A DNA stretch of 64,000 nt from an uncultured Candidatus Saccharibacteria bacterium (GTDB lineage: Bacteria; Patescibacteriota; Minisyncoccia; Phycocordibacterales; UBA2100). The notes under the pieces were generated by a model, which did no database searches, was not told the origin of the DNA, and saw only the letters and a program-made list of their open reading frames with translations. A program made the translations under genes and the position numbers. The stretch covers positions 12,280 to 76,279 of the forward strand of contig CAZUVH010000004.1 of the NCBI GenBank assembly GCA_964623775.1, written 5' to 3'. Position 1 is the stretch's first letter. Every line of letters starts with the position of its first letter. Positions 1-22,835 of this stretch are shown here, one piece after another.

Positions 1-181
1 TGATGAATCTCACGAAATTATTCTGTCCTGACATACTTGTGACTGTTGAGGAAAAGATATGCTCGACGGGGGAGCTCATGGCCGCGTGGATATCTGGATT
101 TTGACGCAAAATAGCAGCAAGAAGCGTCGACCCCGAGCGGGGCAATCCGGCGATAAAATACGTGTTCTTTGCCTGCGCCAT
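1..181 (-). CDS. Sulfotransferase family protein (N-terminal part; gene continues beyond window start)
   Basis: Reverse-strand translation from the ATG complement at 179-181 gives MAQAKNTYFIAGLPRSGSTLLAAILRQNPDIH.... GLPRSGSTLL matches the 5'-phosphosulfate-binding loop of PAPS-dependent sulfotransferases. The gene lies 37 bp downstream of sat/cysC on the same strand. It is open at the window edge and absent from the ORF track. Confidence 0.5.
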   Translation of the reverse strand, partial: MAQAKNTYFIAGLPRSGSTLLAAILRQNPDIHAAMSSPVEHIFSSTVTSMSGQNNFVRFI

Positions 182-217
182 AGATGGGGCCAGTATACCT
201 TCTTGTCGCCCGGTTGT

Positions 218-1855
218 TTACAGTATCTTGAAAGCGCTGAGCTTCTTGAGGATGATGTTTGCAGCCTCAATCGCAGAAGTCTTGGTGGTATCCACTTTGA
301 TGTCGGGCGTATCGGGGATCTCGTATGGGTCGTCAATGCCAGTGAAGTTCTTGATGAGTCCCGCGCGGGCCTTCTTGTAAAGTCCTTTTGTGTCACGTTC
401 TTCGCAGACCTTGAGCGGAGTGTGTACAAATACCTCGATGTATTTTGCGTGCCTACCGATGAGTTTTTTGTTGGCGTCGCGCGCAACTTTATGAGGAGCG
501 ACAGCTGCGCAAATCGCGATACCGCCTGTTCGGGCTATCTTTTCAGCAATACTACCCATCCGCTTTACGTTGGTGATGCGGTCACGTCTACTAAAACCGA
601 GCTTTTTCTTGTAGTGAGCACGCACGACATCGCCATCAAGAAGCTGCACGTCTGGCAGTCTCATGTCGAGTAGTTTCTGATACACAATTCGAGCGATCGT
701 CGTCTTGCCTGCACAGGGAAGTCCCGATAAGAAGATTACAGCTCCACCACCCGGTTTCTTTACATTGCGCAGCTCGTGAATGACCTCGGGGAACGAGAAC
801 CACTCGGGGATCGGCTCTCCGTTCGCGAGCATCTCACGAAATTTTGTACCGGAGATGTGGAGCGGTGTATCATCCTGCTTGAGTTCGGACACGGCGACGT
901 ATTCTCCCCGTTTCTTTGCAAAGACCATTTCCGGCACGATCACGATATTGATTCCAAGTAGGTGCCCGGTTTTTTTTGCGAGTCGCTGAGCGGCATATGG
1001 CTCGTAAAATGGTTCCCCAAGGGAGTTTGCTCCAGGGCCGGCGTGGTCACGTCCGATGATAAAATGCGTGGCGCCATAATTCTTGCGAATCAATGCGTGC
1101 CAGACTGCTTCACGTGGCCCGGCCATTCTCATCGCTATCGGAAGAACCGCAAGGAGTGCGTCCTTACCGAAGTATTTTTTTACGACGTGTTTGTAACCGC
1201 GCACGCGCCGTACGTAATCGATATCACCCTCTTTCGTGAGTCCTGCGACAGGGTGGAGGAGGGCTTTTGCTCCCGTTTCGCGCATCGCCCGGCGGATTAC
1301 TTCGTAGTGGGCGCGATGGATCGGGTTGCGCGTCTGAAATGCCACGACTTTTTTCCATTTGCGTTTTTTAATTTCACTCTTGAGTTCGTCAGGCGAAAAA
1401 CGCAGTTCCTTGAAGTCGTATGAGTGCGTGCGCCCAATACGCTCAACAGGACCTCCGAGGTACACATTGTGTGTCTCCTCGAAAAGGTATCGCACGCCCG
1501 GGTGCTCAAGACTCTCGGTGCCGTATACACTTCTTGCCTCCAACTTCTTATCCGGCGTATACATGCTTTGTATGGTGAAAAAAGCGATCGGATAGCCGTA
1601 TGTATCGCACAGGACGAGGCATTCGCCGAGCGTATAGGAATCGCTCTCCGGCACATCGAGCACTATCGGCATCGGCCAGAGAGCGCCACTTTTGAGGCGC
1701 ATTCGTGCGACAACCGATCTATAGTCGCCCTCCTTCAAGAAACCTTTAAGGGGGGCAAATCCGCCGCAGAGGATTTGCTCCAAATCCAGCTTTTGTCGCT
1801 CGGTAAGTTGCAGTCGGCGGATATTGGTGGGCACGGACATGTCGGCAGTATACAT
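218..1855 (-). CDS. sat/cysC: Bifunctional sulfate adenylyltransferase (ATP sulfurylase) / adenylylsulfate (APS) kinase
   Basis: 545 aa. The N-terminal ~380 aa resemble ATP sulfurylase (QTRNPIHRAHYE..., GRDHAGPG motif). The C-terminus has an APS-kinase P-loop (FLSGLPCAGKTTIARIV) and the DGD motif. Confidence 0.85.
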   Translation of the reverse strand: MYTADMSVPTNIRRLQLTERQKLDLEQILCGGFAPLKGFLKEGDYRSVVARMRLKSGALWPMPIVLDVPESDSYTLGECLVLCDTYGYPIAFFTIQSMYTPDKKLEARSVYGTESLEHPGVRYLFEETHNVYLGGPVERIGRTHSYDFKELRFSPDELKSEIKKRKWKKVVAFQTRNPIHRAHYEVIRRAMRETGAKALLHPVAGLTKEGDIDYVRRVRGYKHVVKKYFGKDALLAVLPIAMRMAGPREAVWHALIRKNYGATHFIIGRDHAGPGANSLGEPFYEPYAAQRLAKKTGHLLGINIVIVPEMVFAKKRGEYVAVSELKQDDTPLHISGTKFREMLANGEPIPEWFSFPEVIHELRNVKKPGGGAVIFLSGLPCAGKTTIARIVYQKLLDMRLPDVQLLDGDVVRAHYKKKLGFSRRDRITNVKRMGSIAEKIARTGGIAICAAVAPHKVARDANKKLIGRHAKYIEVFVHTPLKVCEERDTKGLYKKARAGLIKNFTGIDDPYEIPDTPDIKVDTTKTSAIEAANIILKKLSAFKIL

Positions 1856-2983
1856 TCAACGGATGTATCTCAGGCATTGTAAGCGCATGCTCATGTCCTC
1901 GACTGTGTTGCAAAATGCGCGCGCATCGGAATATTGACCACGACCAAAAGCTTTTTCCGACAAACCTATTATGCAAGAATCACGGTCGCTTCCCGCGGGG
2001 ATTTTTACGCAGGCATTTTTTGTGAGCATCTCATCGCTGTCGGTAAACGTGGGAGGATAATTAAAAAATCCTACACCCTCGAAACAGTACATGCGCGAAT
2101 CTCCAGTGAGGAGTCCGCATGTTTTTATGTTGATAGCATTGAGCTCGGCTTTGTCGGTGTCCGGAAAGCGATTTTGTAAAAGTCCTTGGAGAAAGATGTA
2201 ACATTGACGCTCATACGATGCGCCTATTGAGGAGCACGGATACGCAAGATCCCCGGCGGGGAGAGGGAGTATCGAGCTGCTGAATTGTAGGGAGAGTCCA
2301 GAATTGAAACTCTCCATGAATGCTCCCGATAGGCAATTCACGCGACCCCTTTCGTGCGGCGCAATTGCGTCACATGTATCGAGACTCTTTGGGAGATCCT
2401 TTAATTCGATGTAGATGATATGTCCGATACCGTGACAGATTGCATTTGATTGCAGGCAGTATTTCTCTCCAATCTGCATGAGCGACGAAATGTCGGTGTG
2501 CGCAATGTCCTCCTCGGCGTAGTCTTGTTTGAGTTCCGACAGAACTGCTTGGCCTATTGCGCCGTGCGTGCAGCCGTTGAAACAATCACTGGGGCACTCA
2601 TCAAGTGCCTCTTCGAGGTTTCCGGTTCTCTTTACTGTCTCTTGGCCAACGACGTGCGCGACTTGATGACAGTGCTGTGTGAGCACATATGATTTTGAGT
2701 CGGTATTCACCGCGGTCAATGAGAGAATTTCTCGCGGCGTGTTTTTCTTCATCATGTGTGAAATGACTGCGTGCAAACACGCACCGGTTTGCGCGTCACT
2801 CAACAATGGCGATTTTTTTTGATCGAAACAAGCAAGAAGGTCTTGCGGGTCGAGTGCGGCATCTTTTTGCGATACCTTTTTCACAACAAGTAACACGCAA
2901 GCAATACTTGCCACGCACACGAGTAAAATAATTACAGCCCTCAATACCTTTCCCAATTGCATATTGCCCAAAAAGTGTACCAC
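1856..2983 (-). CDS. Cys/His-rich membrane-anchored protein, paralog A (unknown function)
   Basis: 375 aa with an N-terminal TM helix. It has conserved HCHQVAHVVG, CxxxCFNGCTHG and CHGIGH motifs. Its stop abuts the sat/cysC start, placing it in the same operon. It is a paralog of 3027..4328. Confidence 0.5.
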   Translation of the reverse strand: MVHFLGNMQLGKVLRAVIILLVCVASIACVLLVVKKVSQKDAALDPQDLLACFDQKKSPLLSDAQTGACLHAVISHMMKKNTPREILSLTAVNTDSKSYVLTQHCHQVAHVVGQETVKRTGNLEEALDECPSDCFNGCTHGAIGQAVLSELKQDYAEEDIAHTDISSLMQIGEKYCLQSNAICHGIGHIIYIELKDLPKSLDTCDAIAPHERGRVNCLSGAFMESFNSGLSLQFSSSILPLPAGDLAYPCSSIGASYERQCYIFLQGLLQNRFPDTDKAELNAINIKTCGLLTGDSRMYCFEGVGFFNYPPTFTDSDEMLTKNACVKIPAGSDRDSCIIGLSEKAFGRGQYSDARAFCNTVEDMSMRLQCLRYIR

Positions 2984-3026
2984 GCACGTATTGCAGAGGG
3001 TTGCGTGGCGGGAAAGTCAGCGCCGC

Positions 3027-4328
3027 TTACTTTTTCGTCGGAGCGGGAGTTTTTCCAAACAAACCATAGCTGTAGTCAGGAAACGATGTGCGCATGGTCT
3101 GGTAGTCGTTGAATTGCGCTAGACATTCGCTGACATGCGCCGCCGCATTGCACAGTCTGCCCGCTGCCCCGCTTGTGAAGGGCTTGCCGAAGTTTTGAAA
3201 CGCTATTCTATAACAGAGGCTCTTTTCATCGGCGCTTGAAATACTCGTGCAATAGACAAGTTGTTTTTTTGCCTGAGGGTCGTCAAGATGGAGCCGGTAC
3301 ACAACGCCAAGTATGCACGAATCGCGCGCGATCTTATCAGGAAGCTGGTCGCAAAGTGTCGCGAGATTCAGGGTCGGCCCCGGATTATCGTCCCGTACAG
3401 TCTCATACCTTGCGTAGCGAAAGCCGAAGCCTTCATAGCAGTATGACCGAGACGTGCCCGTGAACGTGTCGCAAACCGCTCTTGTCTCTTGCGTCTCTCT
3501 TGGGATGTCGCGGACACCGGCTTCCAAGTATTTTCCTATCCGATACAAAAAAAGATAGCGGAAACAGGAGCGCTGATAGGGTATCGCGATGTTGTGGCAC
3601 GAATTTGCGTACGTATCGGGTGTTTCCACCGCACGCGGTGAAGTTGTAGAAAGCAACGGGAGGAAAGACTCACCGAGCCCTGAGCCCTCCATGAAGACCC
3701 CGTCATAGCAATGGATTGGAAAGTTTCCGCTTATGGCGTCACACGCGACGAGTGATTTTTGAAAATTTTGGCTGTTGACGAAAAGAACATGTCCGATCCC
3801 GTGGCAGAGCGACGGTCCTGTGGCACAATATTTCGCACCGATTTCTTTGATGGTCTCGATGTCTGCGTGAGCAATATCGTCTGCATTCGCTTCTTGTGCC
3901 CCGAGATCATTGGTTGCCGCCGCAGCGACCACCCCATGAACGCACCCAGATCCACAAGCATAGGTACATTTTGAGAGCGCATCTTCCACGGAGCCTGACC
4001 GCGCGTATGTGCGTGTGCCGATTGTGTGAGCGATATCGTGACAATAGTCCGTGATAACTTTGTCAGATGTGGCGGATTTTATGTACGTCATGAGCGATGC
4101 CGTTGAATATGTCTTAAGAAGGCGATCTGTCGTTTCCTTCAGGCAGAGATAATCCGGAATCCGAATACCGCTCTCGCTCCTCGTGAAACAATTCACATAT
4201 ATTGCAGGAGAATTGTGCGCACGATCGTACCTCGTCCATGCCGTGTCGAGAAGAAAAAAAAGGAGTGCGCATATCGCGAAACACACTGAGACCGGAAAAA
4301 TGTACGCATTCAAACGTGTACGTATCAT
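3027..4328 (-). CDS. Cys/His-rich membrane-anchored protein, paralog B (unknown function)
   Basis: 433 aa with an N-terminal TM helix. It shares the YCHDIAHTIG, CGSGCVHG and CHGIGH motifs with paralog A. Confidence 0.5.
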   Translation of the reverse strand: MIRTRLNAYIFPVSVCFAICALLFFLLDTAWTRYDRAHNSPAIYVNCFTRSESGIRIPDYLCLKETTDRLLKTYSTASLMTYIKSATSDKVITDYCHDIAHTIGTRTYARSGSVEDALSKCTYACGSGCVHGVVAAAATNDLGAQEANADDIAHADIETIKEIGAKYCATGPSLCHGIGHVLFVNSQNFQKSLVACDAISGNFPIHCYDGVFMEGSGLGESFLPLLSTTSPRAVETPDTYANSCHNIAIPYQRSCFRYLFLYRIGKYLEAGVRDIPRETQETRAVCDTFTGTSRSYCYEGFGFRYARYETVRDDNPGPTLNLATLCDQLPDKIARDSCILGVVYRLHLDDPQAKKQLVYCTSISSADEKSLCYRIAFQNFGKPFTSGAAGRLCNAAAHVSECLAQFNDYQTMRTSFPDYSYGLFGKTPAPTKK

Positions 4329-4425: not shown

Positions 4426-4965
4426 ATGATTATTTTCGTGGGAGGTCTTCCGGGCGATGGTCGGAATTATCTCGCGAGCAGGCTTGCGCGAAGGCTGCAA
4501 TTACACCCGTACTCGAAACTCGTGAGCTTCCGGTACTCCTTGCCACCGCACGTGCGATGGATGCCGTACAGCGACACTTTTTCACAGCGCATGGTGCAAA
4601 AAACATCAATGGATTTTCCGCTCTTACTCAAAATGCATCCACGTACGATCATTACCCATGAAATTCACACGGCACGTGCCCGCGAGCTTCTGTTTGAGTC
4701 AGGGCGACGATTCGGGGACGTAATAATCGTATGGATCGAGACAGCCGACGAGCATGCAAGAGAACTTCTTCATCTTCAGACACTCGACGATATGCAAATA
4801 AAAAGGCGCCTACTGTTGCGTTCTGAGATGCAAAAGCAGCTACAGCCAATCACGGAGCCTCATATCGTATTCAAAAATACTGGAGCGCCGGAAGAATCCG
4901 CCGCGCGTTTTTGTGATGTCGTTCTAAACGAAATACACGTACTGGAATCCGCAACTGCAGAATAG
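4426..4965 (+). CDS. Hypothetical protein with degenerate P-loop (kinase-like fold?)
   Basis: 179-aa ORF. The N-terminal IIFVGGLPGDGRNY is Walker-A-like but lacks the lysine. It is divergent from the upstream operon. Confidence 0.35.
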   Translation: MIIFVGGLPGDGRNYLASRLARRLQLHPYSKLVSFRYSLPPHVRWMPYSDTFSQRMVQKTSMDFPLLLKMHPRTIITHEIHTARARELLFESGRRFGDVIIVWIETADEHARELLHLQTLDDMQIKRRLLLRSEMQKQLQPITEPHIVFKNTGAPEESAARFCDVVLNEIHVLESATAE

Positions 4966-5102
4966 GTGATCGTGGCGGAGTCCAGGCGACGAGACACGCG
5001 GGGCGCGTTACAGGAATTCATTGACACTTAATGAATTCCATGTAATAATACTGCTTAGGGAAAGGTCCATGGCGGTCCTTGATCATGCAAAAAGGTGTAA
5101 CG

Positions 5103-5351
5103 ATGAAGTTTGTCATGCTCGCATCCATTCTGGTCTCTTCCTTCGTCGGTGGTACGGCTTCGGCCTGGGAGGGCAGTAAATGCGCGTTCCCGGGAGCCCC
5201 CGCGAAGGGAGAGCTCAGGTACAAGACGCGCATTGTCATCCCAGTCGATCTGAGCGTCTGCCCCTCAGGGCGGGTGACAATCGTCGGCGGACGAGCTGCT
5301 CCCAACGGGCGCATACTCAATATGCGCACGTGCTCGTGCGTGGGGAAATAA
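5103..5351 (+). CDS. Small secreted protein (signal peptide, 5 Cys)
   Basis: ORF 5079..5351. AAAGGTG sits 6 nt before the internal ATG at 5103 (MKFVMLASILVSSFVGGTASA...). A rho-independent terminator follows. Confidence 0.4.
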   Translation: MKFVMLASILVSSFVGGTASAWEGSKCAFPGAPAKGELRYKTRIVIPVDLSVCPSGRVTIVGGRAAPNGRILNMRTCSCVGK

Positions 5352-5360
5352 AATCGATAA

Positions 5361-5393
5361 GGTCCGACAACGCGCGTTGTCGGGCCTTTTTTT
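5361..5393 (+). terminator. Rho-independent terminator
   Basis: GGTCCGACAACGCGCGTTGTCGGGCC hairpin followed by TTTTTTT. Confidence 0.6.
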
Positions 5394-5474: not shown

Positions 5475-5681
5475 CTAACGAGCATCGTTACCGTTTTGGT
5501 TTTTGTATTCTCGCCAAAGATTTACCAGCAGCACGAGCGCTGTAATGATCCACGCTGAAATCCAAAGATCGGTCACTATCGTAATGTGAGTATCCAAAAA
5601 TTGCTGCAAAGGATCAAGACGTGTCGGCATATGACCCGCCAGTTCTTTCAATACAATGAGAGGTGGTGTGGAACTCGACAT
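5475..5681 (-). CDS. Small membrane protein (hypothetical)
   Basis: 68-aa ORF with one hydrophobic helix, lying 8 bp downstream of the large membrane protein gene. No clear RBS. Confidence 0.25.
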   Translation of the reverse strand: MSSSTPPLIVLKELAGHMPTRLDPLQQFLDTHITIVTDLWISAWIITALVLLVNLWREYKNQNGNDAR

Positions 5682-5689
5682 ACAAAATA

Positions 5690-7060
5690 CTAATAGTGAT
5701 ACCAGTTCTGCACAGGGTAGCCAACAACTTTTGCCTCAGGCGGCACGAGTATCCAGGAATTGTGTGTGAATGGCGCGTAATCAATGTCGCACATATCCGC
5801 TTGTTCAACGATTCTGTAGAAAGGCCCGCCGTTTATTGAATGATCGAATTGCAGCGCTATTCGATGTATGTTCGGATTTTGCTTGCATTGGTTGCGCAGC
5901 TTCGACCACCATTCATACGGATCGCATCTATTCCAGGCTGTTCCCGATTCATACCGCATCTCCAGGGTGTTTTCCTTTGCGCCGAGCATTGTTGCGCGCT
6001 TCACGAGGCAATAGAAGCCGCCGCAAGGTGTTCCTTCTGAAACCTCGTAATCTCTATCAGGGTCTAATTTTTCGGATGTATACCTCGTCACGGTGGCAAT
6101 GCATTGATGATTTGCCTCAAACATAAACATGCCGTACCGATTTCCTTCGAGTGTGAGGTAGCGATCAGATGAGATACTGAACCCAAGCAGTTGAAAGAGC
6201 GCGACGATCACGACCAGACACCACCCCGCGATGGCGGCGCGCGTAAAAGGTGTCTTTGTGTGGCGGTACATCGGACCAAATAGAATAAGGAGAGGTGGGA
6301 GTGAGATCGAGGGGTAGTTATATATTACGAGGATCCCAGAATACAAATGAAAGAATACCGCAAATGCAAAACTGGCCCTTTGTAAAATCCAATTGCGCGA
6401 AAGCAAAAACCATGCGCCGACCACCTGCTCGAAAATGACGATGTTTGTCGCTATAGGGATGAGCCAATCAGGGAAAAGGGGAATACCGTCTACCAGGGAG
6501 CTAAAATATGTCCCCTCAATCCATGCGGGAGAGAATTTTACCGTAACCGACATGAAGTAGAATAATACGAACAGGAGTTTCAAAAAATATTCTTTGAAGG
6601 GAATGAAAAGAAGTGCCGCTGTGAGAAATATATGGTAGTAGTCGTACGGCCCCACATTGAGGTAATTGAGAGATAGCTCAAAAATTTTCCAAAGAAGAAG
6701 AAATAGCAAAAGCATGTGAGCGTGCACCCATTGTTTTCTCCACATGCAGTAGACGATAAGCAGCATGATTCCGTAGAGAGCCATGTACACTGTGGTGTGC
6801 GAATACCCGTACGGCAGCGCGTGTAATACGTAAAAATCGGCGCAGCTTTGGAAAAAAGGCCAGCACACGGCACCGGCATTGCGTGCGGCCTCTGCCGTGA
6901 TATTTGAGCGTATACTCCATACGAAGAATGTGACGAAAAAATAAAAAAGCATCGCTCCGAACATCCACTGGAGAACGATGCCGCTCTCAATTTCGTCGAT
7001 ACTGAAAATTTTCCGATATTTCGCCGCAAAAATTCGCCAATAGTGTCTGACCTTTCCCAT
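5690..7060 (-). CDS. Polytopic integral membrane protein with C-terminal Cys-containing soluble domain (weak HTTM/VKGC-like resemblance)
   Basis: 456 aa, roughly 9 predicted TM segments in the first 300 aa. It starts 3 bp after the SagB stop, making it the third gene of the copy-1 YcaO-SagB operon. Confidence 0.55.
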   Translation of the reverse strand: MGKVRHYWRIFAAKYRKIFSIDEIESGIVLQWMFGAMLFYFFVTFFVWSIRSNITAEAARNAGAVCWPFFQSCADFYVLHALPYGYSHTTVYMALYGIMLLIVYCMWRKQWVHAHMLLLFLLLWKIFELSLNYLNVGPYDYYHIFLTAALLFIPFKEYFLKLLFVLFYFMSVTVKFSPAWIEGTYFSSLVDGIPLFPDWLIPIATNIVIFEQVVGAWFLLSRNWILQRASFAFAVFFHLYSGILVIYNYPSISLPPLLILFGPMYRHTKTPFTRAAIAGWCLVVIVALFQLLGFSISSDRYLTLEGNRYGMFMFEANHQCIATVTRYTSEKLDPDRDYEVSEGTPCGGFYCLVKRATMLGAKENTLEMRYESGTAWNRCDPYEWWSKLRNQCKQNPNIHRIALQFDHSINGGPFYRIVEQADMCDIDYAPFTHNSWILVPPEAKVVGYPVQNWYHY

Positions 7061-7062: not shown

Positions 7063-7815
7063 CTAATTTTCGGTAATTGTCGCTGTACCGGACAATGTAT
7101 CCTGTCGGCTACATACAGTGATGGCATGCAGCGCCTGTTCCTGCTCCTCTTCAAGGTCAAGAAGCTGTGCGACTTTTGCGTCATCAAAACCCGCATACGG
7201 CCGTACATTGAGGTCGAGCGCGGTGCCGACGAGTAATATATTTTCGCTCATATGGCCGGCTTCGAGGAGGGCGTGAAGGTAGGCAAGATTGCCGTACTTT
7301 GCGGATGAGCGTTTCCACACGCTGGTAAAAACGATCAAGCTTGAAACGGGAAGCGTCTCGGGGTGCTTGGCGACATCTTTCATATTAAAGCCAGCCGGAA
7401 GATCCCATAGCCGCTCAAGTGCGTGTTTCGTCGGATTGTAATGAAATACGGCAGGGGTTTGTGATTCCAATGCCGTTGAGATGAGATATGTCTCCACGGG
7501 ATAGAGTCCGCCGCCAGACGGGTAATTCCGGTTCATCACGCCTGCGCGCTTTCGCAGCGCGAGGCCAAGCAATGTCCCGAATGTTTCGAGCGAAACCGGA
7601 ATCGCGGGGTCCCCGGAAAAGGCAGAGCTTCGATGTTCGAGCACACTGTATAGCGTCGTTGTGATCTGCTCGGGGTCGGGAAGCGGGATAAGCGGCATGC
7701 GAGCGTATGTCTTGTGCTGCCCCCTCGGCACGTCTTCTGGGCGGTGGGTGGCGCCACGCCTCGTGAGGCGCGCACCTCGTAATTCTGCATGCAGGTGTGA
7801 TAAAAAGGATGTCAT
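7063..7815 (-). CDS. SagB-type (McbC-like, nitroreductase-fold) dehydrogenase, copy 1
   Basis: Track ORF 7063..8016 is N-extended. The real start, MTSFLSHLH, is at 7815 and forms an ATGA overlap with the YcaO stop. The HRSSAFSG and NRNYPSGGGLYPVETY motifs are typical of SagB/ThcOx dehydrogenases. It is 62% similar to copy 2. Confidence 0.8.
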   Translation of the reverse strand: MTSFLSHLHAELRGARLTRRGATHRPEDVPRGQHKTYARMPLIPLPDPEQITTTLYSVLEHRSSAFSGDPAIPVSLETFGTLLGLALRKRAGVMNRNYPSGGGLYPVETYLISTALESQTPAVFHYNPTKHALERLWDLPAGFNMKDVAKHPETLPVSSLIVFTSVWKRSSAKYGNLAYLHALLEAGHMSENILLVGTALDLNVRPYAGFDDAKVAQLLDLEEEQEQALHAITVCSRQDTLSGTATITEN

Positions 7816-9257
7816 GAAAATGGGTGAGGTCTCTCGGCGAAAGGTTTTTTCAAGGGAGTGTACCCGAGAGCCTTGGGAACCTCGTGCCAGCGCGCTCCGC
7901 CAAACTGCTGAATCCAATCCATAAGATACGTGGGTTGCAGCTGCGGGATGACGACCATTTCTATATGCAGAGAGGTAGGATTTTTCGCAGATGTGCCGAG
8001 CGAAACGGAAATGCACTCGAACTCATTTTTCCTGCACCATTGCGTGATTCGCTGCAATTGCTGCTCCTCATCATCGTTATCCCATTCTGAGTGCCCGATC
8101 TCGATTTCCTTTCCCTGAATCAGAAATTCAAGTTTTTTGGCATTTTCCGGAACGCTCCAATAGTATACGCGTTCGCGATGCCCGATCTTTTCGACGGGCG
8201 TACTGTTATCCCACGTATTTCCCTCCTCGAACCATGAGCGACAGAAGCGGCGTGCGCGTATCGCCTCGGTCGTCGCTTTTTCAATTGCATAGGGGAGTGA
8301 TCGATGCGCTTTAAGGCCGATCGAAAAACGGGGTGCGCCGCCACTCAGATCTTCGGTCACGACGGCCACTGCGTGAGTCGGCGCATCGGTGGGGAGCTGT
8401 ATGACATGTGTCTTGAGTCGGTATCTCTCGCATTTTGCGACGCTCCTTGCGAGCGACGGAGATTGAGCGCACAGGGGAGCGAGCGCAATGCGTGGGAGAG
8501 TCATCTGATTGAGCCACATGATCATGTACGCCTCGCGCTCGATCACTTCGAGCGCGCCAGCAAGTCTCGCTCCGGATTGTGTGCGCCATGTCGCGAGGCC
8601 GTTTGTATTTTGCTGTCGGATCACTGGCTCTTGTGCGCCTCCCGGCAAATTACGACGTCGTATACCGGCCACGACCTGTGCCGGTATATACACGCTGCCT
8701 CCGTGCACTAGCGAAGTGCCCTGGATCCAAAGATATTCCGCGTCGGGGCGCAGCTGTCGTTCTGGGTACTCCGCACGCTGCTCCTCCGAAAATCCAACAA
8801 TATCTTCCGGTGGAACAAAGAGCCCCAACTTTCCGATCTCGTCCTTCGTCGCACGCGTCGGATTCATAAAGTAGTCGTCCTGCGTCATCCAGATATATCG
8901 CTCAAGCGCCTCGGAAAGAGTGGCGTAGAGCGCATCTGCGTCACTTTCCCATGTGGTACCCCCAACCTGATGATTTGATTCGTTATTACAAACGGCAGTC
9001 CAGTTTCTCATGGGCGGCTCATCAGGGAAAAAGAGGCTCGTCTGACCGAATGATTTTATGACCCCGCTTTCTCTCAAGAGTGCGGCGAGTTGTAGCGGCT
9101 CGCGTAAATCTGGGCGGCCAAACGGGATTTTTTGTACGTCGAACATGACCCTCGCGCCGAGCCTGTTCTCGACATAGTTTGCGAATGCTGCGAGCGCCTT
9201 ATTTTTCAAGTCGGATCCAGTGAGTGTTTGGCTGAACGGCACTGCATCAAAAATCAT
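7812..9257 (-). CDS. YcaO-domain protein (azoline-forming cyclodehydratase family), copy 1
   Basis: 481 aa. It carries the YcaO signatures ALYATLSEALERYIW and QQNTNGLATW, and is a paralog of 16149..17588. Confidence 0.85.
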   Translation of the reverse strand: MIFDAVPFSQTLTGSDLKNKALAAFANYVENRLGARVMFDVQKIPFGRPDLREPLQLAALLRESGVIKSFGQTSLFFPDEPPMRNWTAVCNNESNHQVGGTTWESDADALYATLSEALERYIWMTQDDYFMNPTRATKDEIGKLGLFVPPEDIVGFSEEQRAEYPERQLRPDAEYLWIQGTSLVHGGSVYIPAQVVAGIRRRNLPGGAQEPVIRQQNTNGLATWRTQSGARLAGALEVIEREAYMIMWLNQMTLPRIALAPLCAQSPSLARSVAKCERYRLKTHVIQLPTDAPTHAVAVVTEDLSGGAPRFSIGLKAHRSLPYAIEKATTEAIRARRFCRSWFEEGNTWDNSTPVEKIGHRERVYYWSVPENAKKLEFLIQGKEIEIGHSEWDNDDEEQQLQRITQWCRKNEFECISVSLGTSAKNPTSLHIEMVVIPQLQPTYLMDWIQQFGGARWHEVPKALGYTPLKKPFAERPHPFS

Positions 9258-9263
9258 GCCAGC

Positions 9264-9269
9264 ATCATA
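9264..9269 (-). promoter_or_regulatory. -10 box (TATGAT) 6 nt upstream of the YcaO ATG, suggesting a leaderless transcript
   Basis: Reverse complement reads ctgtTATGATgctggcATG. The same arrangement occurs at copy 2. Confidence 0.3.
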
Positions 9270-9322
9270 ACAGTCCGAGGACCTCCATGAAAGTTCTCGG
9301 TCCTTATCCCCATTGGATTTCT

Positions 9323-9351
9323 TTGACAGTCGGATGGATCACCACAATAAT
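9323..9351 (+). promoter_or_regulatory. Putative sigma70 promoter for the precursor-peptide operon (TTGACA-N17-AATAAT)
   Basis: TTGACA at 9323-9328 and AATAAT at 9346-9351. The ATG at 9364 is 12 nt downstream. Confidence 0.35.
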
Positions 9352-9363
9352 GCATATACGTAT

Positions 9364-9675
9364 ATGGTAATCCTTGAAAAAACGAGTAGCGGGGTGACGG
9401 GGATTTTTAAGAAAATTGCAAGCGCAGCCCTCGTGGTATCTGGGTTTGTGCTGATATTTTTCACGACGCATTCAAAATCTTCGGGAGTCACGCAATCGAT
9501 TTACGGTGCGGACGTAGCGCATGCGGATGTACCATCTGGCGACAGCGCAAGCAGCTCAGGCGACGCATCTGGCAGCGGCAGCGGCGCGAGCGATTGCGGC
9601 GGTGGCGGTGACTGCGGAGGTTCTGATGGTTGCGGAGGCTGTGGCGACAGCGGTTCTGATAGTGGGGGGTACTAA
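9364..9675 (+). CDS. Candidate RiPP precursor peptide, copy 1 (hydrophobic N-terminal helix, Gly/Ser/Cys-rich C-terminal core)
   Basis: Track ORF 9313..9675; the start conserved with copy 2 is MVILEKTSSG at 9364. The C-terminus SGDSASSSGDASGSGSGASDCGGGGDCGGSDGCGGCGDSGSDSGGY has 6 Cys in a Gly/Ser matrix and is microcin B17-like. It is divergent from YcaO. Confidence 0.55.
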   Translation: MVILEKTSSGVTGIFKKIASAALVVSGFVLIFFTTHSKSSGVTQSIYGADVAHADVPSGDSASSSGDASGSGSGASDCGGGGDCGGSDGCGGCGDSGSDSGGY

Positions 9676-9693
9676 ATCGTGGTGCCGAAAACA

Positions 9694-10806
9694 ATGTCAC
9701 ACATTTTAAGACTTATCGTTTGGTTGCTCGCACTATTAATTCCGATAATAGTCGTTTATGGCGTCTACAACCTCGTTATACTGAAAAGTGCACAACCCGT
9801 TCCCTCTGATTTGGTCCCTATCTTGCAGGCAATCCGAAATGGAAACGAACAAGCCGCCATTGATCTCTACGAGACCATTCAGAATGATCCGAGCAAGAAC
9901 GCCGGTGATAAGGCGCTCGCGACCCTTTATATTTTAAATACGAGCTACAGTTTATCCGGCGACGGCGACGACAGTCTGGAAGAGGTGAAGGCGTTGAAAA
10001 AAATAATCAATGATCCGCTGATAATCAAGAAGGTGCGAGCGGCAGCCGTCAATGTCCTTGGGAATGAGTACAATGTTTCAGGAAAGAATCTAGACGTTGT
10101 CACCGAGATTTACAAAGACGAACCATTTCGCTCATATGAAGTTCCCGGGGATCCGGAACTATCATCCTTGAACCTTCAGAAGTGGTCATACGACATGTTT
10201 CCTTCGTCTGCTGCGGCAATAAGCGTCGCACAGATCGCCTCTGGACGATATTTTTCCCATCCAGATCAGCCGGCGAGCACCACAGCGGCCTACGTGGCTA
10301 TGGCCGAGGATTACCTGGGCAAGGCTGAAGCAGCCGTCATCGAGGAGCTGGAGGGCAATCCTCAGTGGTATGTGGCCAGCCATCGATACATGATATACCG
10401 CTCAATGCGAGCGATCACAATCGGTCGTCTGGCTATAACAAAGGGGGAACCGTACCGCAGTGCATACCGCAGAGAATTCGATGATTTTTTCGCACATGCG
10501 GAGGGGAAGAAAAGCGCCGCAGCAAGTAAAGCAATTCTCAGTACACGCTTTCAGTATGCCAGAGTTCTTGCCGCCGATAAGGACGAGATCAACGAAAAAA
10601 TACAGCTCGACCAGCTGGCGCAAGCACTCAACTCGCTTCAGGATCCCGATAACTATCCTCTCGTACTCCTTTTTAAGAACGAGTATTTAAACCAACCAAC
10701 TGGCCTGACGTGGACCGCTGTAAAACGGATGGCCACAGTATCGCCGGATTTCAAAGTTGCGGTTGAAAGGCTCACTGTTCTGGCTTCGACCCACGCTTCG
10801 CAGTGA
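9694..10806 (+). CDS. Membrane-anchored protein of unknown function (conserved in both cassette copies)
   Basis: About 370 aa with an N-terminal TM helix. It is a paralog of 18017..19105 (shared motifs EIYKD.PF.SY.VP.DP.LS.LN, AAAKG, SPD.K.AV). Confidence 0.5.
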   Translation: MSHILRLIVWLLALLIPIIVVYGVYNLVILKSAQPVPSDLVPILQAIRNGNEQAAIDLYETIQNDPSKNAGDKALATLYILNTSYSLSGDGDDSLEEVKALKKIINDPLIIKKVRAAAVNVLGNEYNVSGKNLDVVTEIYKDEPFRSYEVPGDPELSSLNLQKWSYDMFPSSAAAISVAQIASGRYFSHPDQPASTTAAYVAMAEDYLGKAEAAVIEELEGNPQWYVASHRYMIYRSMRAITIGRLAITKGEPYRSAYRREFDDFFAHAEGKKSAAASKAILSTRFQYARVLAADKDEINEKIQLDQLAQALNSLQDPDNYPLVLLFKNEYLNQPTGLTWTAVKRMATVSPDFKVAVERLTVLASTHASQ

Positions 10807-11615: not shown

Positions 11616-11716
11616 AATACCTCCCCGTTCACTCGGTTTATCAACATCGTGCGCACCGTATAAAAAAAGTATTGATATGATTGGGGTAATAGAGCCGCAC
11701 TCGACCGTATTTTTTT

Positions 11717-13231: not shown

Positions 13232-13270
13232 GACTAGAGTCTCGGGGGCAATGATTCGTACAGGAAAGAC

Positions 13271-14905
13271 TCACCGCACCTTTTTCAGGCAATACAATTC
13301 GTTGGCTACCGTGCGCGCAAAAATTGATTTTGTTTTTTCGTTGTACGCAATTTTACTCATGAAGCGCTCACTTGCCTGGAAATAGCCGATCTTTGTGCCG
13401 CACTCAACATCTATTTCATACAGACATCCGTCGTTGGAGCCGAGAAAGAGGGAATCGTCCACAATAGCGGGCGCGCCGAATATCCTCCCACGCGTCTCAA
13501 ATGACCATCGTCTCTTTGATGTCTCGATATCGATCGCATAGAGCGATTTGTCGAGCGAAGCTACGTACACGGTGCCTTCGTGAACGAGGGGTATGGAGTA
13601 GATCGCGGCACCGGTCTCGTATGCATAGAGCGGCTCTCCCGTCTGCGCGGAGAGTGCATACAGCTTTCCGTCCATTGAAGCAAAGAAAATGATTCTTCTT
13701 TTCGGATCGTACGCTGGAGCGACCTTGATATCGCCCCTGGTCGCATAACGCCAGAGCAATTGGCCCGTTTTTGCATCGTACGCATAGCAGATGCCGTCGT
13801 TGCTCCCGATCACGACGATCCCTTCTTCTCGTATATAGAGGGGTGACCCATGGGTGAGTGCGGGGGATTTCTCTTGCCAACGCCTTGCCCCGGTGTGCAT
13901 ATCAAGCGCTACGATCCCACCGCGTTTGCCAAAGAGTCCGAATTCCAAACCGATATAGATGAGGCCGAGATCCGGCGCGAGCGACGGGGAAGAGCCGACC
14001 CAGTCGGCGTCGTCGTAGCGCCATTTTTCCGTGCCTGTCTTCGCGTCGAGTGCGTACACGACGCCGTCATATGCGCCGAAGTACAAGATTCCTTTGTGAA
14101 GCGCGGGAGTCGAAAGAATCCCTTTTCCTTCCGGATATTTTCCTACAGTGAATTCCCAGGCGACCTCGCCACTTCTCTGGTCGAGCGCGCGCATGACGCC
14201 GTCGTCACACCCGAGATACACGAGCGTGTCGTCGATGACCGGTGCGGATTTCTGCACGACGGTATGAAAGCTCGGGTTGGGCCCTGTATATCGCCACACC
14301 GTCTCGAATTCGCTCCCTTTTTCCGGCGGGGTGTTTTTGAGGAGCGGCATCCCGAAATCTTCGAGCGTAAAGAGATTATGTACGGCGACACCCTTCTCTT
14401 CGAATTTTTTGTACGCGTCTTCTGATCTAAACGCGAGAATTGTGAATATATCGGTGACTTTTTTTCCTGTGTCAGCAAGCACGGCCAACTGCTTTTCAAA
14501 TGTAGAGCCTGTATTGATGAGATCGTCGACGAGGACGATCGGATCATCGGTGAGCGTGCCTTCGATCTGACGCATGAGACCCTGGCGTTTGCGCGATTTG
14601 CGGATATAAAAACCATTGACGGGGGTCCCGCGCTCGACTCCTTTCATCACGATCGCAGAGACGAGCGAGATCGCGGCCGTTTCCATTGCGCCGACCTGAA
14701 AGGGGAGCTTCGGGGCGTACAGTTCCCAAAAAATCTCGGCATATCGATTGAGCCACTGCGGCTGGAGCATGAGCGCGCGGAAATCGAACAACCAATCCTC
14801 ACGTCTTCCCGACTGCTCGGATGCGACGATGACCGCCCCCGATTCTCTTTTTACGAGGACTACGGACTCTATTGCCTGTCGTAGATCGTCGTATTTTTTT
14901 TTCAT
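13271..14905 (-). CDS. Fusion protein: type I phosphoribosyltransferase domain + PQQ-repeat beta-propeller
   Basis: 544 aa. The N-terminal PRPP-binding motif IVLVDDLINTGSTF (PRTase) is followed by repeated YALDAKTG..W, YAYDAKTGQLLW and YALSAQTGEPLY PQQ/BamB-type propeller blades. Confidence 0.65.
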   Translation of the reverse strand: MKKKYDDLRQAIESVVLVKRESGAVIVASEQSGRREDWLFDFRALMLQPQWLNRYAEIFWELYAPKLPFQVGAMETAAISLVSAIVMKGVERGTPVNGFYIRKSRKRQGLMRQIEGTLTDDPIVLVDDLINTGSTFEKQLAVLADTGKKVTDIFTILAFRSEDAYKKFEEKGVAVHNLFTLEDFGMPLLKNTPPEKGSEFETVWRYTGPNPSFHTVVQKSAPVIDDTLVYLGCDDGVMRALDQRSGEVAWEFTVGKYPEGKGILSTPALHKGILYFGAYDGVVYALDAKTGTEKWRYDDADWVGSSPSLAPDLGLIYIGLEFGLFGKRGGIVALDMHTGARRWQEKSPALTHGSPLYIREEGIVVIGSNDGICYAYDAKTGQLLWRYATRGDIKVAPAYDPKRRIIFFASMDGKLYALSAQTGEPLYAYETGAAIYSIPLVHEGTVYVASLDKSLYAIDIETSKRRWSFETRGRIFGAPAIVDDSLFLGSNDGCLYEIDVECGTKIGYFQASERFMSKIAYNEKTKSIFARTVANELYCLKKVR

Positions 14906-17588: not shown

Positions 17589-17595
17589 AGCGAGA

Positions 17596-17601
17596 TTATA
17601 G
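17596..17601 (-). promoter_or_regulatory. Consensus -10 (TATAAT) 7 nt upstream of the YcaO ATG, suggesting a leaderless transcript
   Basis: Reverse complement reads gctgcTATAATctcgctATG. Confidence 0.35.
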
Positions 17602-17649
17602 CAGCATCCACGCTGTCCGATACATTTTGCGACTATCCACCGAATGTCA

Positions 17650-17678: not shown

Positions 17679-17690
17679 GTACACATCTGT

Positions 17691-17993
17691 ATGGCCATCA
17701 TTGAAAAGACAAGAAGCGGTGTACGAACCTTTTTTGAAAAAATCGGACAAGTGGGACTTATCACCGTTGGACTCGTGTCGCTCTTTTTTGCCCCTCATCC
17801 TAAATCATCCGATGTCGCACAATCAGGCGAGCATCTATTTGGTGCCGGCGTCGCGCATGCAGACGCGCCCTCAGGAGATTCGGCAAGCAGCGCCAGTGGC
17901 GATGCTGGCTGTGGTACCGGCGGCTGCGGTGCCGGCAGCAGCGATAGCGGTGGCGGCAGCGATAGTGGCTGCGGCTGCGGTGGGTGCTACTGA
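17691..17993 (+). CDS. Candidate RiPP precursor peptide, copy 2
   Basis: 100 aa: MAIIEKTRSGVRTFFEKIGQVGLITVGLVSLFFAPHP...GAGVAHADAPSGDSASSASGDAGCGTGGCGAGSSDSGGGSDSGCGCGGCY. It has the same architecture as 9364..9675, including the conserved VAHAD.PSGDSASS junction. Confidence 0.55.
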   Translation: MAIIEKTRSGVRTFFEKIGQVGLITVGLVSLFFAPHPKSSDVAQSGEHLFGAGVAHADAPSGDSASSASGDAGCGTGGCGAGSSDSGGGSDSGCGCGGCY

Positions 17994-18016
17994 GTTGAAC
18001 AAATTTAATCTTACCC

Positions 18017-22056: not shown

Positions 22057-22202
22057 GACAGCCCCTAGCGAATTTGCATTTTCAGACACACTAGCGTATA
22101 TTGCCTGCACGTCCTGCTTCGCACGGACAAGCCATGTCCCCATACGGGACCACTGGAGTGAGCCACTGGCCCGCTTCAGCGCGGCCATTTTCATTCAAAA
22201 AT

Positions 22203-22835
22203 ATGAGCAGCAAATTCATGTTGGGCACAAAAGGGAAGATGACGCAGGTCTTCGATGAGAAGGGCGTCGTTTCGGCTGCGACGATCGTCAATGCCGGCCC
22301 CCTCACCGTCACACAGGTAAAGGACAAACCGAAAGACGGCTACCAGGCGGCACAGGTCGGCTTTGGTACGCGTCGCGAGAAAAACGTGAACAAGCCGCAG
22401 CGCGGTCACCTCAAGGATCTCCCGCTTCCTCGCTACATGCGCGAGTTCTCTCCTGAAGTAGAGGTCAAGCGCGGCGATACTATAGATATATCGATCTTCG
22501 CACCAGGGGATATGGTAGAGGTCTCTGCTATTTCCAAGGGTAAGGGCTTCCAGGGAGTCGTAAAACGCCATGGTTTCCGCGGCGGTCCGCGCTCGCACGG
22601 TCAGAAAAATAAGGAGCGCGCTCCAGGATCAATCGGTGGCGGCGGTCGCGCCGGCGCGCGTGTCATCAAGGGTATGCGCATGGCAGGACGCATGGGCGGT
22701 ACTCGCATTACGGTCAAGAATCTCCGCGTCTTGCAGGTAGATCCTGCTTCAAATACACTCGTCATCTCAGGAGCTATCCCGGGTCACCCTGGCACGCTCA
22801 TAGAAATCCGCTCGCAAGCGAATCACGATAAATAA
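22203..22835 (+). CDS. rplC: 50S ribosomal protein L3
   Basis: MSSKFMLGTKGKMTQVFDEKG..., typical uL3. The internal ATG at 22203 is used because the track ORF begins at a TTG upstream. Confidence 0.9.
   Translation: MSSKFMLGTKGKMTQVFDEKGVVSAATIVNAGPLTVTQVKDKPKDGYQAAQVGFGTRREKNVNKPQRGHLKDLPLPRYMREFSPEVEVKRGDTIDISIFAPGDMVEVSAISKGKGFQGVVKRHGFRGGPRSHGQKNKERAPGSIGGGGRAGARVIKGMRMAGRMGGTRITVKNLRVLQVDPASNTLVISGAIPGHPGTLIEIRSQANHDK

Follow-up and report, generated by a model that had tools for sequence, protein, structure and literature searches.

A putative PAPS-dependent sulfation module and two Cys/His-rich membrane-anchored paralogs at the edge of a linear azole-peptide island in a Candidatus Saccharibacteria genome

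What would a sulfate-activating enzyme serve when it is encoded between a sulfotransferase and two Cys/His-rich membrane proteins in the genome of a CPR bacterium? The question is raised by the first 4,328 nucleotides of a 64,000-nucleotide stretch from an uncultured Candidatus Saccharibacteria bacterium (hereafter, the window), where four tightly packed minus-strand genes run in the order paralog B, paralog A, sat/cysC and sulfotransferase (Table 1). This order and the coordinates of all four reading frames had been given in a first-pass annotation and were recovered unchanged. The spacer between sat/cysC and the sulfotransferase, reported there as 37 bp, measures 36 nt. The stop of paralog A (1856) does abut the start of sat (1855) when open reading frames are considered, but the gene-caller starts at Met6 of sat/cysC (540 aa) and Met8 of paralog A (368 aa) place a 15-nt spacer between these genes and one of 64 nt between the paralogs. 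A terminator scan of the unit found no terminator-like sites above chance between the four genes.

Table 1 Features of the island and its boundaries, in window positions
Feature	Position	Strand	Basis
Sulfotransferase, first 60 of 260 codons, predicted cytoplasmic	1..181	-	Sulfotransfer_3; remainder left of window, then convergent rpsJ
sat/cysC, bifunctional sulfate adenylyltransferase/APS kinase (PAPS synthase)	218..1855	-	Pfam domains, NF004040
Paralog A, membrane-anchored Cys/His-rich all-alpha repeat protein	1856..2983, start probably 2962 (368 aa)	-	Family profile
Paralog B, membrane-anchored Cys/His-rich all-alpha repeat protein, 433 aa	3027..4328	-	Model, conservation
Unassigned 179-aa protein, degenerate P-loop-like N-terminus, divergent from paralog B	4426..4965	+	Translation
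68-aa single-helix membrane protein	5475..5681	-	tblastn
mem456, 456-aa polytopic membrane protein, CPR-specific	5690..7060	-	Homologues
SagB-type azoline dehydrogenase, cassette 1, called as 250 aa	7063..7815	-	Nitroreductase 1e-12; TIGR03605
YcaO cyclodehydratase, cassette 1	7812..9257	-	PF02624 1e-41
Precursor peptide 1: hydrophobic helix, AHAD motif, Gly/Ser/Asp/Cys-rich core ending ...DSGSDSGGY	9334..9675	+	Translation
Phosphoribosyltransferase-like N-terminus + PQQ/BamB-type beta-propeller protein	13271..14905	-	Pfam, PDB sequence matches
SagB, cassette 2	15442-16152	-	Pfam Nitroreductase 6e-12
YcaO, cassette 2	16149-17588	-	Pfam YcaO 1e-46; start taken at Met71 by alignment with YcaO of cassette 1
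Precursor peptide 2: core ending ...GCGCGGCY	17691..17993	+	Translation
rplC, right-hand island boundary	22101..22835	+	Ribosomal_L3; then L4, L2, L22, S3, L16

Sat/cysC matches the Pfam domains PUA_2 (E 1e-37), ATP-sulfurylase (E 1e-78) and APS_kinase (E 1e-54), and with all three domains in place it passes the NCBIfam bifunctional equivalog NF004040 (685 bits, cut-off 669), in agreement with the identity first proposed for it. QTRNPIHRAH, GRDHAG and a P-loop are readable in its translation, and judged from these features it is equipped to turn sulfate and 2 ATP into PAPS. The 60-codon fragment at 1-181 matches Sulfotransfer_3 at E 1e-7; its sole NCBIfam match, the nodulation sulfotransferase NoeE, is far under cut-off. 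Profile search and extension confirmed it as a sulfotransferase: L001, a metagenome contig from the same organism whose shared genes are identical to the window, carries the complete gene (12140-12922, 260 aa; Sulfotransfer_3 3e-21, Sulfotransfer_1 1e-14), and rpsJ, just left of window position 1, lies there at 12951-13319. Against PF13469 the full-length protein scores 77 bits (cut-off 27), with residues 9-206 of 260 covered.

The sulfotransferase contains a 5'-PSB motif, GLPRSGST (G12-L-P-R15-S-G-S-T19), and a 3'-PB motif, R113-D-x6-S121 (R-x7-S). Neither R113 nor any 5'-PSB residue varies among 12 CPR orthologues, and the conservation of S121 is at least 90%; the 5'-PSB Arg and the 3'-PB Ser are the PAPS-motif residues defined as essential in PMC6637879. 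Between the two motifs H32 and E40 are invariant in the CPR orthologues and are candidates for the catalytic base, the catalytic Glu of TPST aligning with neither. The best solved relatives are TPST1/2, at a weak E of ~1e-3 and over the N-terminal, PAPS-binding half only. TPSTs are filed in PF13469 by UniProt; the protein belongs by its sequence to this TPST-type family, with PAPS-binding motifs that appear intact and a predicted cytoplasmic location. Sat/cysC and the complete sulfotransferase together support a dedicated PAPS-dependent sulfation module. A role in sulfation instead of assimilation had been proposed at the outset, and it is supported by this pair and by the absence of cysH, cysD, cysN and sir among the ORFs scanned in the window.

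The other two genes are true paralogs, as had been claimed (29% identity over 374 columns, E 3e-46). The family profile, which matches paralog A at 1.8e-103, retrieved 7,182 representatives of 50%-identity clusters, with up to 13 matched stretches within one protein. The suspicion that these proteins lie outside known families was upheld: neither has a Pfam, NCBIfam or PDB sequence match or a significant PDB fold match, no PDB sequence matches the family profile at E up to 10, and Pfam matches, SEL1 included, are absent from 110 members. Their description as membrane proteins holds in that they are membrane-anchored, but they are single-pass and not polytopic, a single N-terminal anchor helix being followed by a large soluble all-alpha repeat domain. 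In the aligned N-terminal flanks positive charges lie mostly ahead of the anchor helix, which favours an N-in, C-out topology. The AlphaFold2 model of paralog B is helical throughout (pLDDT 89.7, pTM 0.88). The best Foldseek matches of both models are ARM/HEAT/TPR solenoids such as importin-alpha and LGN, at E 0.026 or worse, TM ~0.2 and rmsd ~20 Å, a likeness confined to alpha-helical repeat architecture and not one of homology or membership.

The Cys/His motifs quoted for the paralogs in the first-pass annotation are present and fall in invariant columns. In paralog B numbering, H97, H101, H131, H176, H180 and M213 are invariant, a Glu reaches 92% conservation, and together these residues are spread over four successive long helices. 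According to sequence and predicted model, most helix-turn-helix junctions have a Cys pair (C-x8-15-C) across them. A comparable arrangement is found in the Sel1-like proteins HcpB/HcpC of Helicobacter, secreted alpha-helical hairpin repeats with one disulfide per hairpin and a Cys spacing of ~7. In most paralog hairpins, likewise, one Cys of a pair closes a predicted helix and the other opens the following one; unlike Hcp, the spacing is 8-15 residues and a His/Met/Glu patch is invariant. Membership of the Sel1-like repeat proteins was rejected, the SEL1 profile being unmatched in the 110 members, and 6ok3, the only Sel1-repeat structure among the Foldseek matches listed for the first model, has E 0.19 and TM 0.15. 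A zincin metallopeptidase was likewise discarded: in the family motifs C-H-x-[IV]-[AG]-H and C-H-G-I-G-H the first His has no conserved Glu after it, neither HExxH nor a variant with the catalytic Glu occurs, and no peptidase profile matches. The CHG and HG-type motifs presumably resemble those of LanC, an alpha/alpha toroid with a Cys-Cys-His zinc site. No PDB sequence (E up to 10) and no LanC among the top 50 Foldseek matches was found, and LanC-like cyclases were set aside. The metal sites once suggested stay plausible, the support consisting of the conservation pattern and of fusions, in some relatives, to a cupredoxin-like domain that bears a signal peptide; others carry a PMT_2 domain. 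Together, sequence and model would fit a surface protein that binds a metal or a ligand.

This four-gene unit marks the rpsJ-proximal border of an island of ~22 kb, which is located between rpsJ and rplC and interrupts the S10 ribosomal-protein operon of this Paceibacteria-like CPR bacterium. Its core consists of two YcaO/SagB linear azole-peptide (LAP) cassettes. SagB of cassette 1 scores 106.8 bits against TIGR03605 (cut-off 78.4), and YcaO of the same cassette scores 164 bits against the TOMM-type TIGR03604, under its cut-off of 219; no E1-like partner was recognised as a separate gene beside YcaO/SagB. The assignment to LAP/TOMM follows from YcaO and a SagB-type dehydrogenase beside a Cys/Ser/Gly-rich precursor, of which there are two. 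The parts of PMC7298704 used here describe 110 LAP/TOMM clusters in 93 CPR genomes, with YcaO beside a nitroreductase-type dehydrogenase and a Cys/Ser-rich precursor; the same parts make no mention of a sulfotransferase, sat/cysC, a Cys/His-rich family, mem456 or a placement between rpsJ and rplC.

Further island genes recur in related loci. Mem456 has homologues with 43-59% identity in L004/5, L006, L008, L011, L012, L013 and L015, and among the loci examined it never occurs without a nearby paralog. All of its 567 homologues are annotated as hypothetical and none has a Pfam domain; no PDB match was obtained. By tblastn, the 68-aa protein directly follows the mem456 homologue in L006, L008, L012, L013 and L015. 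The propeller protein, with PDB matches to OPRTase (residues 18-186) and to propellers, is a conserved island component (43-72% identity in L006, L008, L010-L015 and L097). Homologues of the 179-aa protein (28-30% identity) adjoin a paralog in L013 and L015; its kinase-like matches are sub-threshold, and it has no PDB match. A Pfam scan of the island revealed no recognisable protease or transporter. Cys-rich fn3-type proteins are further putative secreted products of the island.

How tightly, then, are paralogs and sulfation genes linked? The coupling first proposed is real in the window, where they are adjacent, but loose elsewhere: in a set of nine paralog-bearing loci the sulfotransferase is found in two (the window and L007, arranged par-ST) and sat/cysC in the window alone. 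The paralogs are more commonly accompanied by LAP genes (YcaO/SagB), mem456 and the propeller protein than by sulfation genes. The link to the RiPP-like cassette, by contrast, had been offered as speculative and proved to be the best-supported context. Orthologues of the sulfotransferase (56-66% identity) occupy the same rpsJ-proximal LAP-island edge in five other genomes, of which two have sat/cysC and three do not, and the island is bounded by rpsJ and rplC in the window, L014, L097 and L013/L099. L013 and L015 read 306-aa gene, sat/cysC, ST, par; hence the order par-par-sat-ST of the window becomes sat-ST-par with the linkage kept. L097 reads par ... ST, and L014 reads YcaO ... ST, combining sulfotransferase and LAP genes with no paralog. 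Shared island ancestry could be part of the cause of this conserved neighbourhood.

A possible acceptor is indicated by the precursors. Homologues of precursor 1 occur in L014, L097, L099, L010 and L011, and an A-[HYN]-A-D motif is conserved among precursors. All five precursors from sulfotransferase-bearing islands have exactly one core Tyr, C-terminal in four of them; in L099 it is internal and the last residue is Lys. Two precursors of loci without a sulfotransferase have no core Tyr, a correlation of five genomes against two loci in which all precursors are homologous.

We give an even chance to the joint reading that the module is dedicated to the island product, most likely the precursor Tyr, with the paralogs as accessory binding partners. 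The module would then serve this product and not sulfur assimilation, and its likeliest acceptor would be the lone Tyr that the LAP precursors carry in their acidic core rich in Gly, Ser and Cys. Sulfation would take place in the cytoplasm, ahead of export, and would have parallels in the RaxX-RaxST pair and in the sulfation of lanthipeptides by SslST. The paralog domain would be extracellular and disulfide-stapled, its His/Met/Glu patch may bind metal or ligand, and the paralogs might help to bind or handle the island product after export, in an accessory role. The least secure step is a direct functional link of the paralogs to sulfation.

RiPP clusters with a sulfotransferase and PAPS-supply genes are already known (PMC11143521, PMC6637879). 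In Xanthomonas oryzae, the TPST-like, PAPS-dependent RaxST sulfates a Tyr of the ribosomal peptide RaxX in the cytoplasm while the leader is still attached, with PAPS supplied by the ATP sulfurylase and APS kinase of RaxP/RaxQ (PMC6637879; PMC4646787). RaxX bears no other modification and leaves the cell through a peptidase-containing ABC transporter, and raxPQ are housekeeping genes elsewhere; the island differs in its YcaO/SagB azole context, a precursor with its own hydrophobic helix, a fused in-cluster sat/cysC and the lack of a Rax-type transporter. The ssl/ssc lanthipeptide clusters of Streptomyces (LanM + SslST + CysCDN) combine a sulfotransferase with their own PAPS genes; SslST targets Tyr in a cyclised leaderless peptide and has TPST1 as closest structural relative (PMC11143521). 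Against this lanthipeptide system with CysC/D/N in Actinobacteria stands a predicted linear azole peptide with fused sat/cysC in CPR. In rhizobia, NodP/NodQ and NodH provide dedicated PAPS supply and a sulfotransferase that decorate secreted Nod factor, again not for assimilation. The Nod acceptor is a lipochitooligosaccharide, and chitin-oligomer genes are absent here; Nod serves as a model for a non-peptide acceptor.

Such an acceptor is quite possible, as the family to which the sulfotransferase belongs occurs widely in other phyla, outside any RiPP context: among 80 loci with homologues at 39-48% identity, none has a paralog, YcaO or RiPP genes, and six include an APS kinase as a neighbour. 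The module might then sulfate a cell-envelope glycan, lipid or small molecule, with the peptide left unsulfated and the island location due only to co-regulation or common ancestry. Cell-envelope chemistry is hinted at by genes next to the module, CapK-like ones in L013/L015 and MurL in L097, and the weak similarity to TPST, limited to the PAPS-binding half, is compatible with it. Still, we consider this rather unlikely, given that the sulfotransferase holds its island position despite rearrangements in six genomes, that precursor cores show the one-Tyr pattern, and that Pfam and NCBIfam reveal no glycosyltransferase or lipid-synthesis gene within the four-gene unit of the window. That sat/cysC performs ordinary assimilatory activation, with its neighbours of no functional meaning, is highly improbable. 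It is a standard sulfate-activation enzyme, yet the scanned ORFs of the window include none of the assimilatory genes cysH, sir, cysD and cysN, just 36 nt separate it from the sulfotransferase, and the pair recurs in L013 and L015; moreover, APS-reductase-type assimilation needs no APS kinase.

The acceptor could also be Tyr of secreted island proteins, i.e. the paralogs or the Cys-rich fn3-type proteins, sulfated before export. This would account for the shared operon, and it is favoured by the tight packing in the window, L013/L015 and L007 and by the TPST-type family of the sulfotransferase. We regard it as very doubtful because the sulfotransferase occurs without paralog in L014 and is missing from most paralog loci, no Tyr is found among family columns conserved at 80% or more, and no bacterium is known to us in which Sec substrates are sulfated in the cytoplasm. 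Conversely, the paralogs may be extracytoplasmic enzymes instead of binders, for example a leader peptidase cutting at the conserved AHA|D motif or a metal-dependent oxidase. Five invariant His and one Met with the conserved Glu, the A-[HYN]-A-D motif common to precursors, and an island in which no protease or transporter was recognised would suit such a function. It appears improbable in view of the lack of HExxH or any other known peptidase signature and of any Pfam, NCBIfam or PDB match, and in view of tandem copies (up to 13) more typical of binding or structural modules, and of a family far larger than the island-specific mem456 family (7,182 against 567).

Returning to the joint reading, its widest extension is a long shot: the island would make a new kind of RiPP, an acidic, Gly/Ser/Cys-rich sulfated azole peptide exported or membrane-tethered by its own hydrophobic leader helix. 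If so, the His-rich, Cys-stapled solenoid paralogs would be dedicated extracellular receptors or metal-transfer partners, and the whole would amount to chalkophore-like peptide metal acquisition, or a host-contact system, specific to CPR episymbionts. What the locus itself offers is an ultra-small CPR bacterium with activated-sulfate and sulfotransferase genes inside a peptide-antibiotic-type island, which may thus make a sulfated modified peptide.

The four minus-strand genes at the left end of the window, described in the first-pass annotation as paralog B, paralog A, sat/cysC (a fused ATP-sulfurylase/APS-kinase) and a sulfotransferase, were recovered as tightly packed frames in the ORF listing. 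Domain matches and the relatedness of the two membrane-anchored Cys/His-rich paralogs (29% identity end to end, E = 3e-46) bear this description out. Gene calling has both paralog A and sat/cysC begin a few codons later, giving spacers of 64, 15 and 36 nt, and a terminator scan revealed no site above chance between the four genes. The sat/cysC product comprises PUA_2, ATP-sulfurylase and APS_kinase domains and passes the NCBIfam equivalog for bifunctional sulfate adenylyltransferase/adenylylsulfate kinase (685 bits, cut-off 669). The sulfotransferase fragment contains the PAPS loop GLPRSGSTLL and matches Sulfotransfer_3. Exact look-up of paralog B retrieved three contigs of this organism from metagenomes, and on contig L001 the fragment extends into a full sulfotransferase domain: the complete protein has 260 aa (Sulfotransfer_3, 3e-21), shows no signal sequence and is followed by a convergent rpsJ.

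Features of the window (positions in nt; sulfation genes, azole-peptide island and other loci)
Feature	Position	Strand	Remarks
sulfotransferase	1-181	-	60 codons; open frame leaves the window at the left edge
sat/cysC	218-1855	-	545-aa ORF
paralog A	1856-2983	-	375 aa counted from first GTG (ORF listing)
paralog B	3027-4328	-	433 aa (ORF listing)
orf179	4426-4965		179 aa, P-loop-like
promoter/terminator pair	5021-5388	+	near-consensus promoter (11/12 positions, extended -10 TG); terminator with 13-bp stem
small secreted protein	5079-5351	+	90 aa, Cys-containing
68-aa membrane protein	5475-5681	-	trails mem456
mem456	5690-7060	-	456 aa, polytopic
YcaO/SagB cassette 1	7063-13231		with divergent precursor
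precursor 1	9334-9675	+
propeller protein	13271-14905	-	"PQQ" propeller; orotate-phosphoribosyltransferase-like N-terminus (residues 18-186)
YcaO/SagB cassette 2	15442-21548		duplicate of cassette 1, with divergent precursor
precursor 2	17691-17993	+
rplC	22101-22835		right island boundary, followed by the remaining S10 operon
coupling-type protein	40703-43519	+	938 aa; TraG/VirD4-type coupling-protein and HerA-like signatures
tmRNA	55694-56083	-	tag ANKTARGVLSPIQVNNLGLVFA
tRNA-Ile	62550-62623	+	anticodon TAT, an uncommon means of reading AUA

Across 12 CPR orthologues of the sulfotransferase the 5'-PSB residues and R113 do not vary, and conservation of S121 is at least 90%; H32 and E40, likewise invariant, are candidates for the catalytic base. 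The closest solved relatives are animal protein-tyrosine sulfotransferases, matched weakly (E about 1e-3) and over the PAPS-binding half only. The wider family is large (4,707 matches at E ≤ 1e-10) and includes members from Proteobacteria and Acidobacteria with approximately 48% identity. A metagenome scan seeded with the CPR sulfotransferases returned, among the matches listed, only homologues from other bacteria at 39–48% identity. As a negative control, 80 loci around such non-CPR homologues, among the matches listed, were examined; neither a paralog nor YcaO was found in any of them, and an APS kinase adjoins the homologue in 6. The gene surroundings of a Dyella homologue were uninformative. 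The sulfotransferase is thus of an ordinary type; its context here is not ordinary.

This context is a linear azole peptide (LAP) island that fills the left 22 kb of the window (1-22056), bounded by rplC and by rpsJ, which lies just left of position 1 (L001 12951-13319). The island thereby splits the normally contiguous S10 ribosomal-protein operon, and the same rpsJ-rplC placement was observed at the related loci L014, L097 and L013/L099. It is unusual for the S10 operon to harbour a biosynthetic island of 22 kb, and this placement is kept in several genomes. Beyond the four-gene unit it holds orf179, for which neither a PDB match nor a family assignment was obtained, mem456 with its trailing membrane protein, two YcaO/SagB cassettes and a phosphoribosyltransferase-propeller fusion. 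It also holds two divergent precursor genes, each followed by genes for a protein of approximately 370 aa, a TPR protein and a secreted protein rich in Cys. The ~370-aa proteins carry a hydrophobic N-terminal stretch, and the large Cys-rich proteins either contain fn3 (504 aa) or repeat C..GQ.WNGS.C units (541 aa). The phosphoribosyltransferase-propeller fusion is itself unusual; it has no signal peptide and is kept in all related islands. For mem456, 567 homologues were found, all from CPR bacteria and all "hypothetical", with Parcubacteria, Paceibacterota or Kaiserbacteria given where a source is named. A membrane protein of approximately 65 aa follows mem456 wherever this could be checked (L006, L008, L012, L013 and L015). 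A suspected likeness of mem456 to HTTM proteins found no support in Pfam (E-values as high as 5), in NCBIfam or among PDB sequences. Promoter and terminator scans stayed at chance level except for the pair bracketing the small plus-strand gene.

The linkage of these genes was followed in two sets of loci. In the first, comprising nine loci sampled via the paralogs, partners were sought by tblastn with the window proteins.

Partners of the paralogs at the nine paralog-sampled loci (window, L004/5, L006, L007, L008, L009, L010, L011, L012)
Partner	Loci	Where found
sat/cysC	1/9	window only
sulfotransferase	2/9	window, L007
mem456	6/9	window, L004/5, L006, L008, L011, L012
propeller protein	6/9	window, L006, L008, L010, L011, L012
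YcaO and/or SagB	5/9	window, L006, L010, L011, L012

At L012 the paralog directly follows SagB, and a paralog lies nearby in all eight mem456 genomes sampled. The second set was sampled via the closest sulfotransferases (56–66% identity). In L013/L099 and L015, mem456, a 65-aa gene and the propeller gene come first; a minus-strand group of two CapK-like genes, one paralog and one orf179-like gene follows, and after it come a 306-aa gene, sat/cysC, sulfotransferase and paralog, with rpsJ at the end. L014 reads TPR, a 378-aa gene, precursor, propeller, SagB, YcaO, sulfotransferase and rpsJ, and neither a paralog nor mem456 was found there. L097 reads precursor, YcaO, SagB, propeller, paralog, sulfotransferase, MurL, two tandem paralogs and rpsJ. 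The sulfotransferase is thus a recurrent edge component of the LAP island, accompanied by sat/cysC in three of six such genomes, and the paralogs form an accessory module of their own without an obligatory tie to sulfation. The first-pass interpretation is supported in part: the dedicated sulfation step stands as the most likely reading, and the proposed coupling of the paralogs to sulfation is its weakest part. From genome to genome, sulfation genes and paralogs change their order but stay linked, which provides some evidence of a functional connection; shared ancestry of the island is a real alternative explanation for the same linkage.

We consider it likely that sulfation here is a dedicated step of the island, i.e. 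a PAPS-dependent reaction that would serve a CPR azole-peptide pathway. The sulfate acceptor was approached through the precursors. Both window precursors have an N-terminal hydrophobic helix, a conserved AHAD motif approximately 20 residues further on, a core of Gly, Ser, Asp and Cys, and a final Tyr; the leader resembles a signal-anchor more than a classical RiPP leader. Seven cores, taken as the sequence after the A-[HYN]-A-D motif, were compared.

Tyrosines in the precursor cores of islands or loci with and without a sulfotransferase
Precursor	Sulfotransferase	Core end	Tyr
window 1	yes	...DSGGY	1, C-terminal
window 2	yes	...CGGCY	1, C-terminal
L014	yes	...EGGGY	1, C-terminal
L097	yes	...GGGAY	1, C-terminal
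L099	yes	...SAASYASGG...GGGGK	1, internal
L010	no	...GSTGS	0
L011	no	...DDDDGG	0

The two precursors from loci lacking the sulfotransferase are also devoid of Cys. A strict rule of a C-terminal Tyr is weakened by the L099 precursor, with its internal Tyr and Lys end. Even so, a single Tyr persists although the rest of the core diverges, as expected if this residue were the one sulfated by a TPST-type enzyme. With so few precursors, all of them homologous, the pattern is a lead and not proof, and the precursor Tyr is tentatively put forward as a possible acceptor. Two CapK-like adenylating enzymes in tandem (L013 2909-5565, L015 2920-5570) and a MurL-like epimerase (L097 10682-12073) lie beside paralog and sulfation genes; these neighbours hint at cell-envelope chemistry. 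Sulfation of an envelope glycan or lipid is judged only slightly less probable than that of the precursor Tyr.

The paralogs themselves belong to a family of considerable size. Neither paralog nor 110 diverse family members matched Pfam, neither paralog matched NCBIfam, the family profile found nothing among PDB sequences with an E-value limit of 10, and no literature on the family was found. A word-indexed search retrieved 13 relatives only, while a full HMMER profile search yielded 7,182 representatives of 50%-identity clusters (E ≤ 0.001), 1,568 of these at ≤ 1e-30, with up to 13 matched stretches in one protein (e.g. P0014, 3,580 aa). A genome-collection scan with a narrower alignment gave three loci, from Paceibacterota, Paceibacteria and Saccharibacteria. 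Together with the sources named for the mem456 homologues, these loci place the organism of the window among the CPR bacteria. At the distant locus L009 (716-9060) at least five to six family genes stand in tandem with nothing else recognisable; tandem amplification is therefore common in the family. Among 109 single-domain representatives H97, H101, H131, H176, H180 and M213 are invariant and E214 reaches 92%; conserved Cys pairs are 47/62, 121/129, 196/207, 244/255, 286/297, 326/338, 360/372 and 393/402. A separate 110-row alignment matched this pattern. An AlphaFold2 model from a 110-sequence alignment is confidently all-helical (pLDDT 89.7, pTM 0.88). In it, each Cys pair is placed at the end of one helix and the start of the next, and the conserved His, Met and Glu sit close to where four successive long helices begin, an arrangement that suggests disulfides and a clustered His/Met/Glu site.

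Foldseek searches of the PDB with two models (pLDDT 77.7 and 89.7) returned only generic ARM/HEAT/TPR solenoids (E ≥ 0.026, TM about 0.2). A LanC-like cyclase, considered because of the CHG and HG motifs, was dismissed given these hits and the failure of the family profile to match PDB sequences; heme-c attachment does not fit the Cys spacing (C-x3-C-x-H, not CxxCH), and a zincin peptidase would need HExxH, which is missing. In aligned N-termini positive charges lie mostly upstream of the anchor helix, in some relatives a signal peptide and a cupredoxin-like domain precede the family domain, and one relative is fused to a PMT_2 glycosyltransferase; together, these features argue for an extracytoplasmic location. 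The cupredoxin-like domains fused in P0087, P0106, P0114, P0131 and P0138 contain HWPASNxHPTH and HDH motifs but lack Cys. For P0106, P0114 and P0138 a predicted A-x-A cleavage would leave His as residue 1, resembling a histidine-brace copper site, and the fusions may faintly point to copper. The paralogs belong to a very large, unannotated family which, judged from alignment and model, is probably extracytoplasmic, disulfide-stapled and metal- or ligand-binding. With no model among the Pfam and NCBIfam entries tested and no solved relative, the family is a clear target for structural and metal-binding work and deserves attention on its own, independent of sulfation.

Precedents for the sulfation step exist in other bacteria: RaxX is sulfated by RaxST with PAPS from RaxP/RaxQ (PMC6637879), and Streptomyces lanthipeptide clusters combine LanM with a sulfotransferase and CysCDN, the product being sulfonated at Tyr (PMC11143521). 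LAP clusters in CPR genomes have already been reported, and the consulted part of that account mentions neither sulfation genes nor the accessory proteins of the island (PMC7298704). The island resembles the known systems in being a RiPP cluster that carries a sulfotransferase together with its own PAPS supply.

The cell-surface and host-interaction biology of CPR bacteria is almost unknown, and we know of no earlier case of a sulfated linear azole peptide. If the peptide is the acceptor, it would be the first of its kind and, as far as we are aware, the first dedicated PAPS-dependent chemistry in the reduced CPR genomes.
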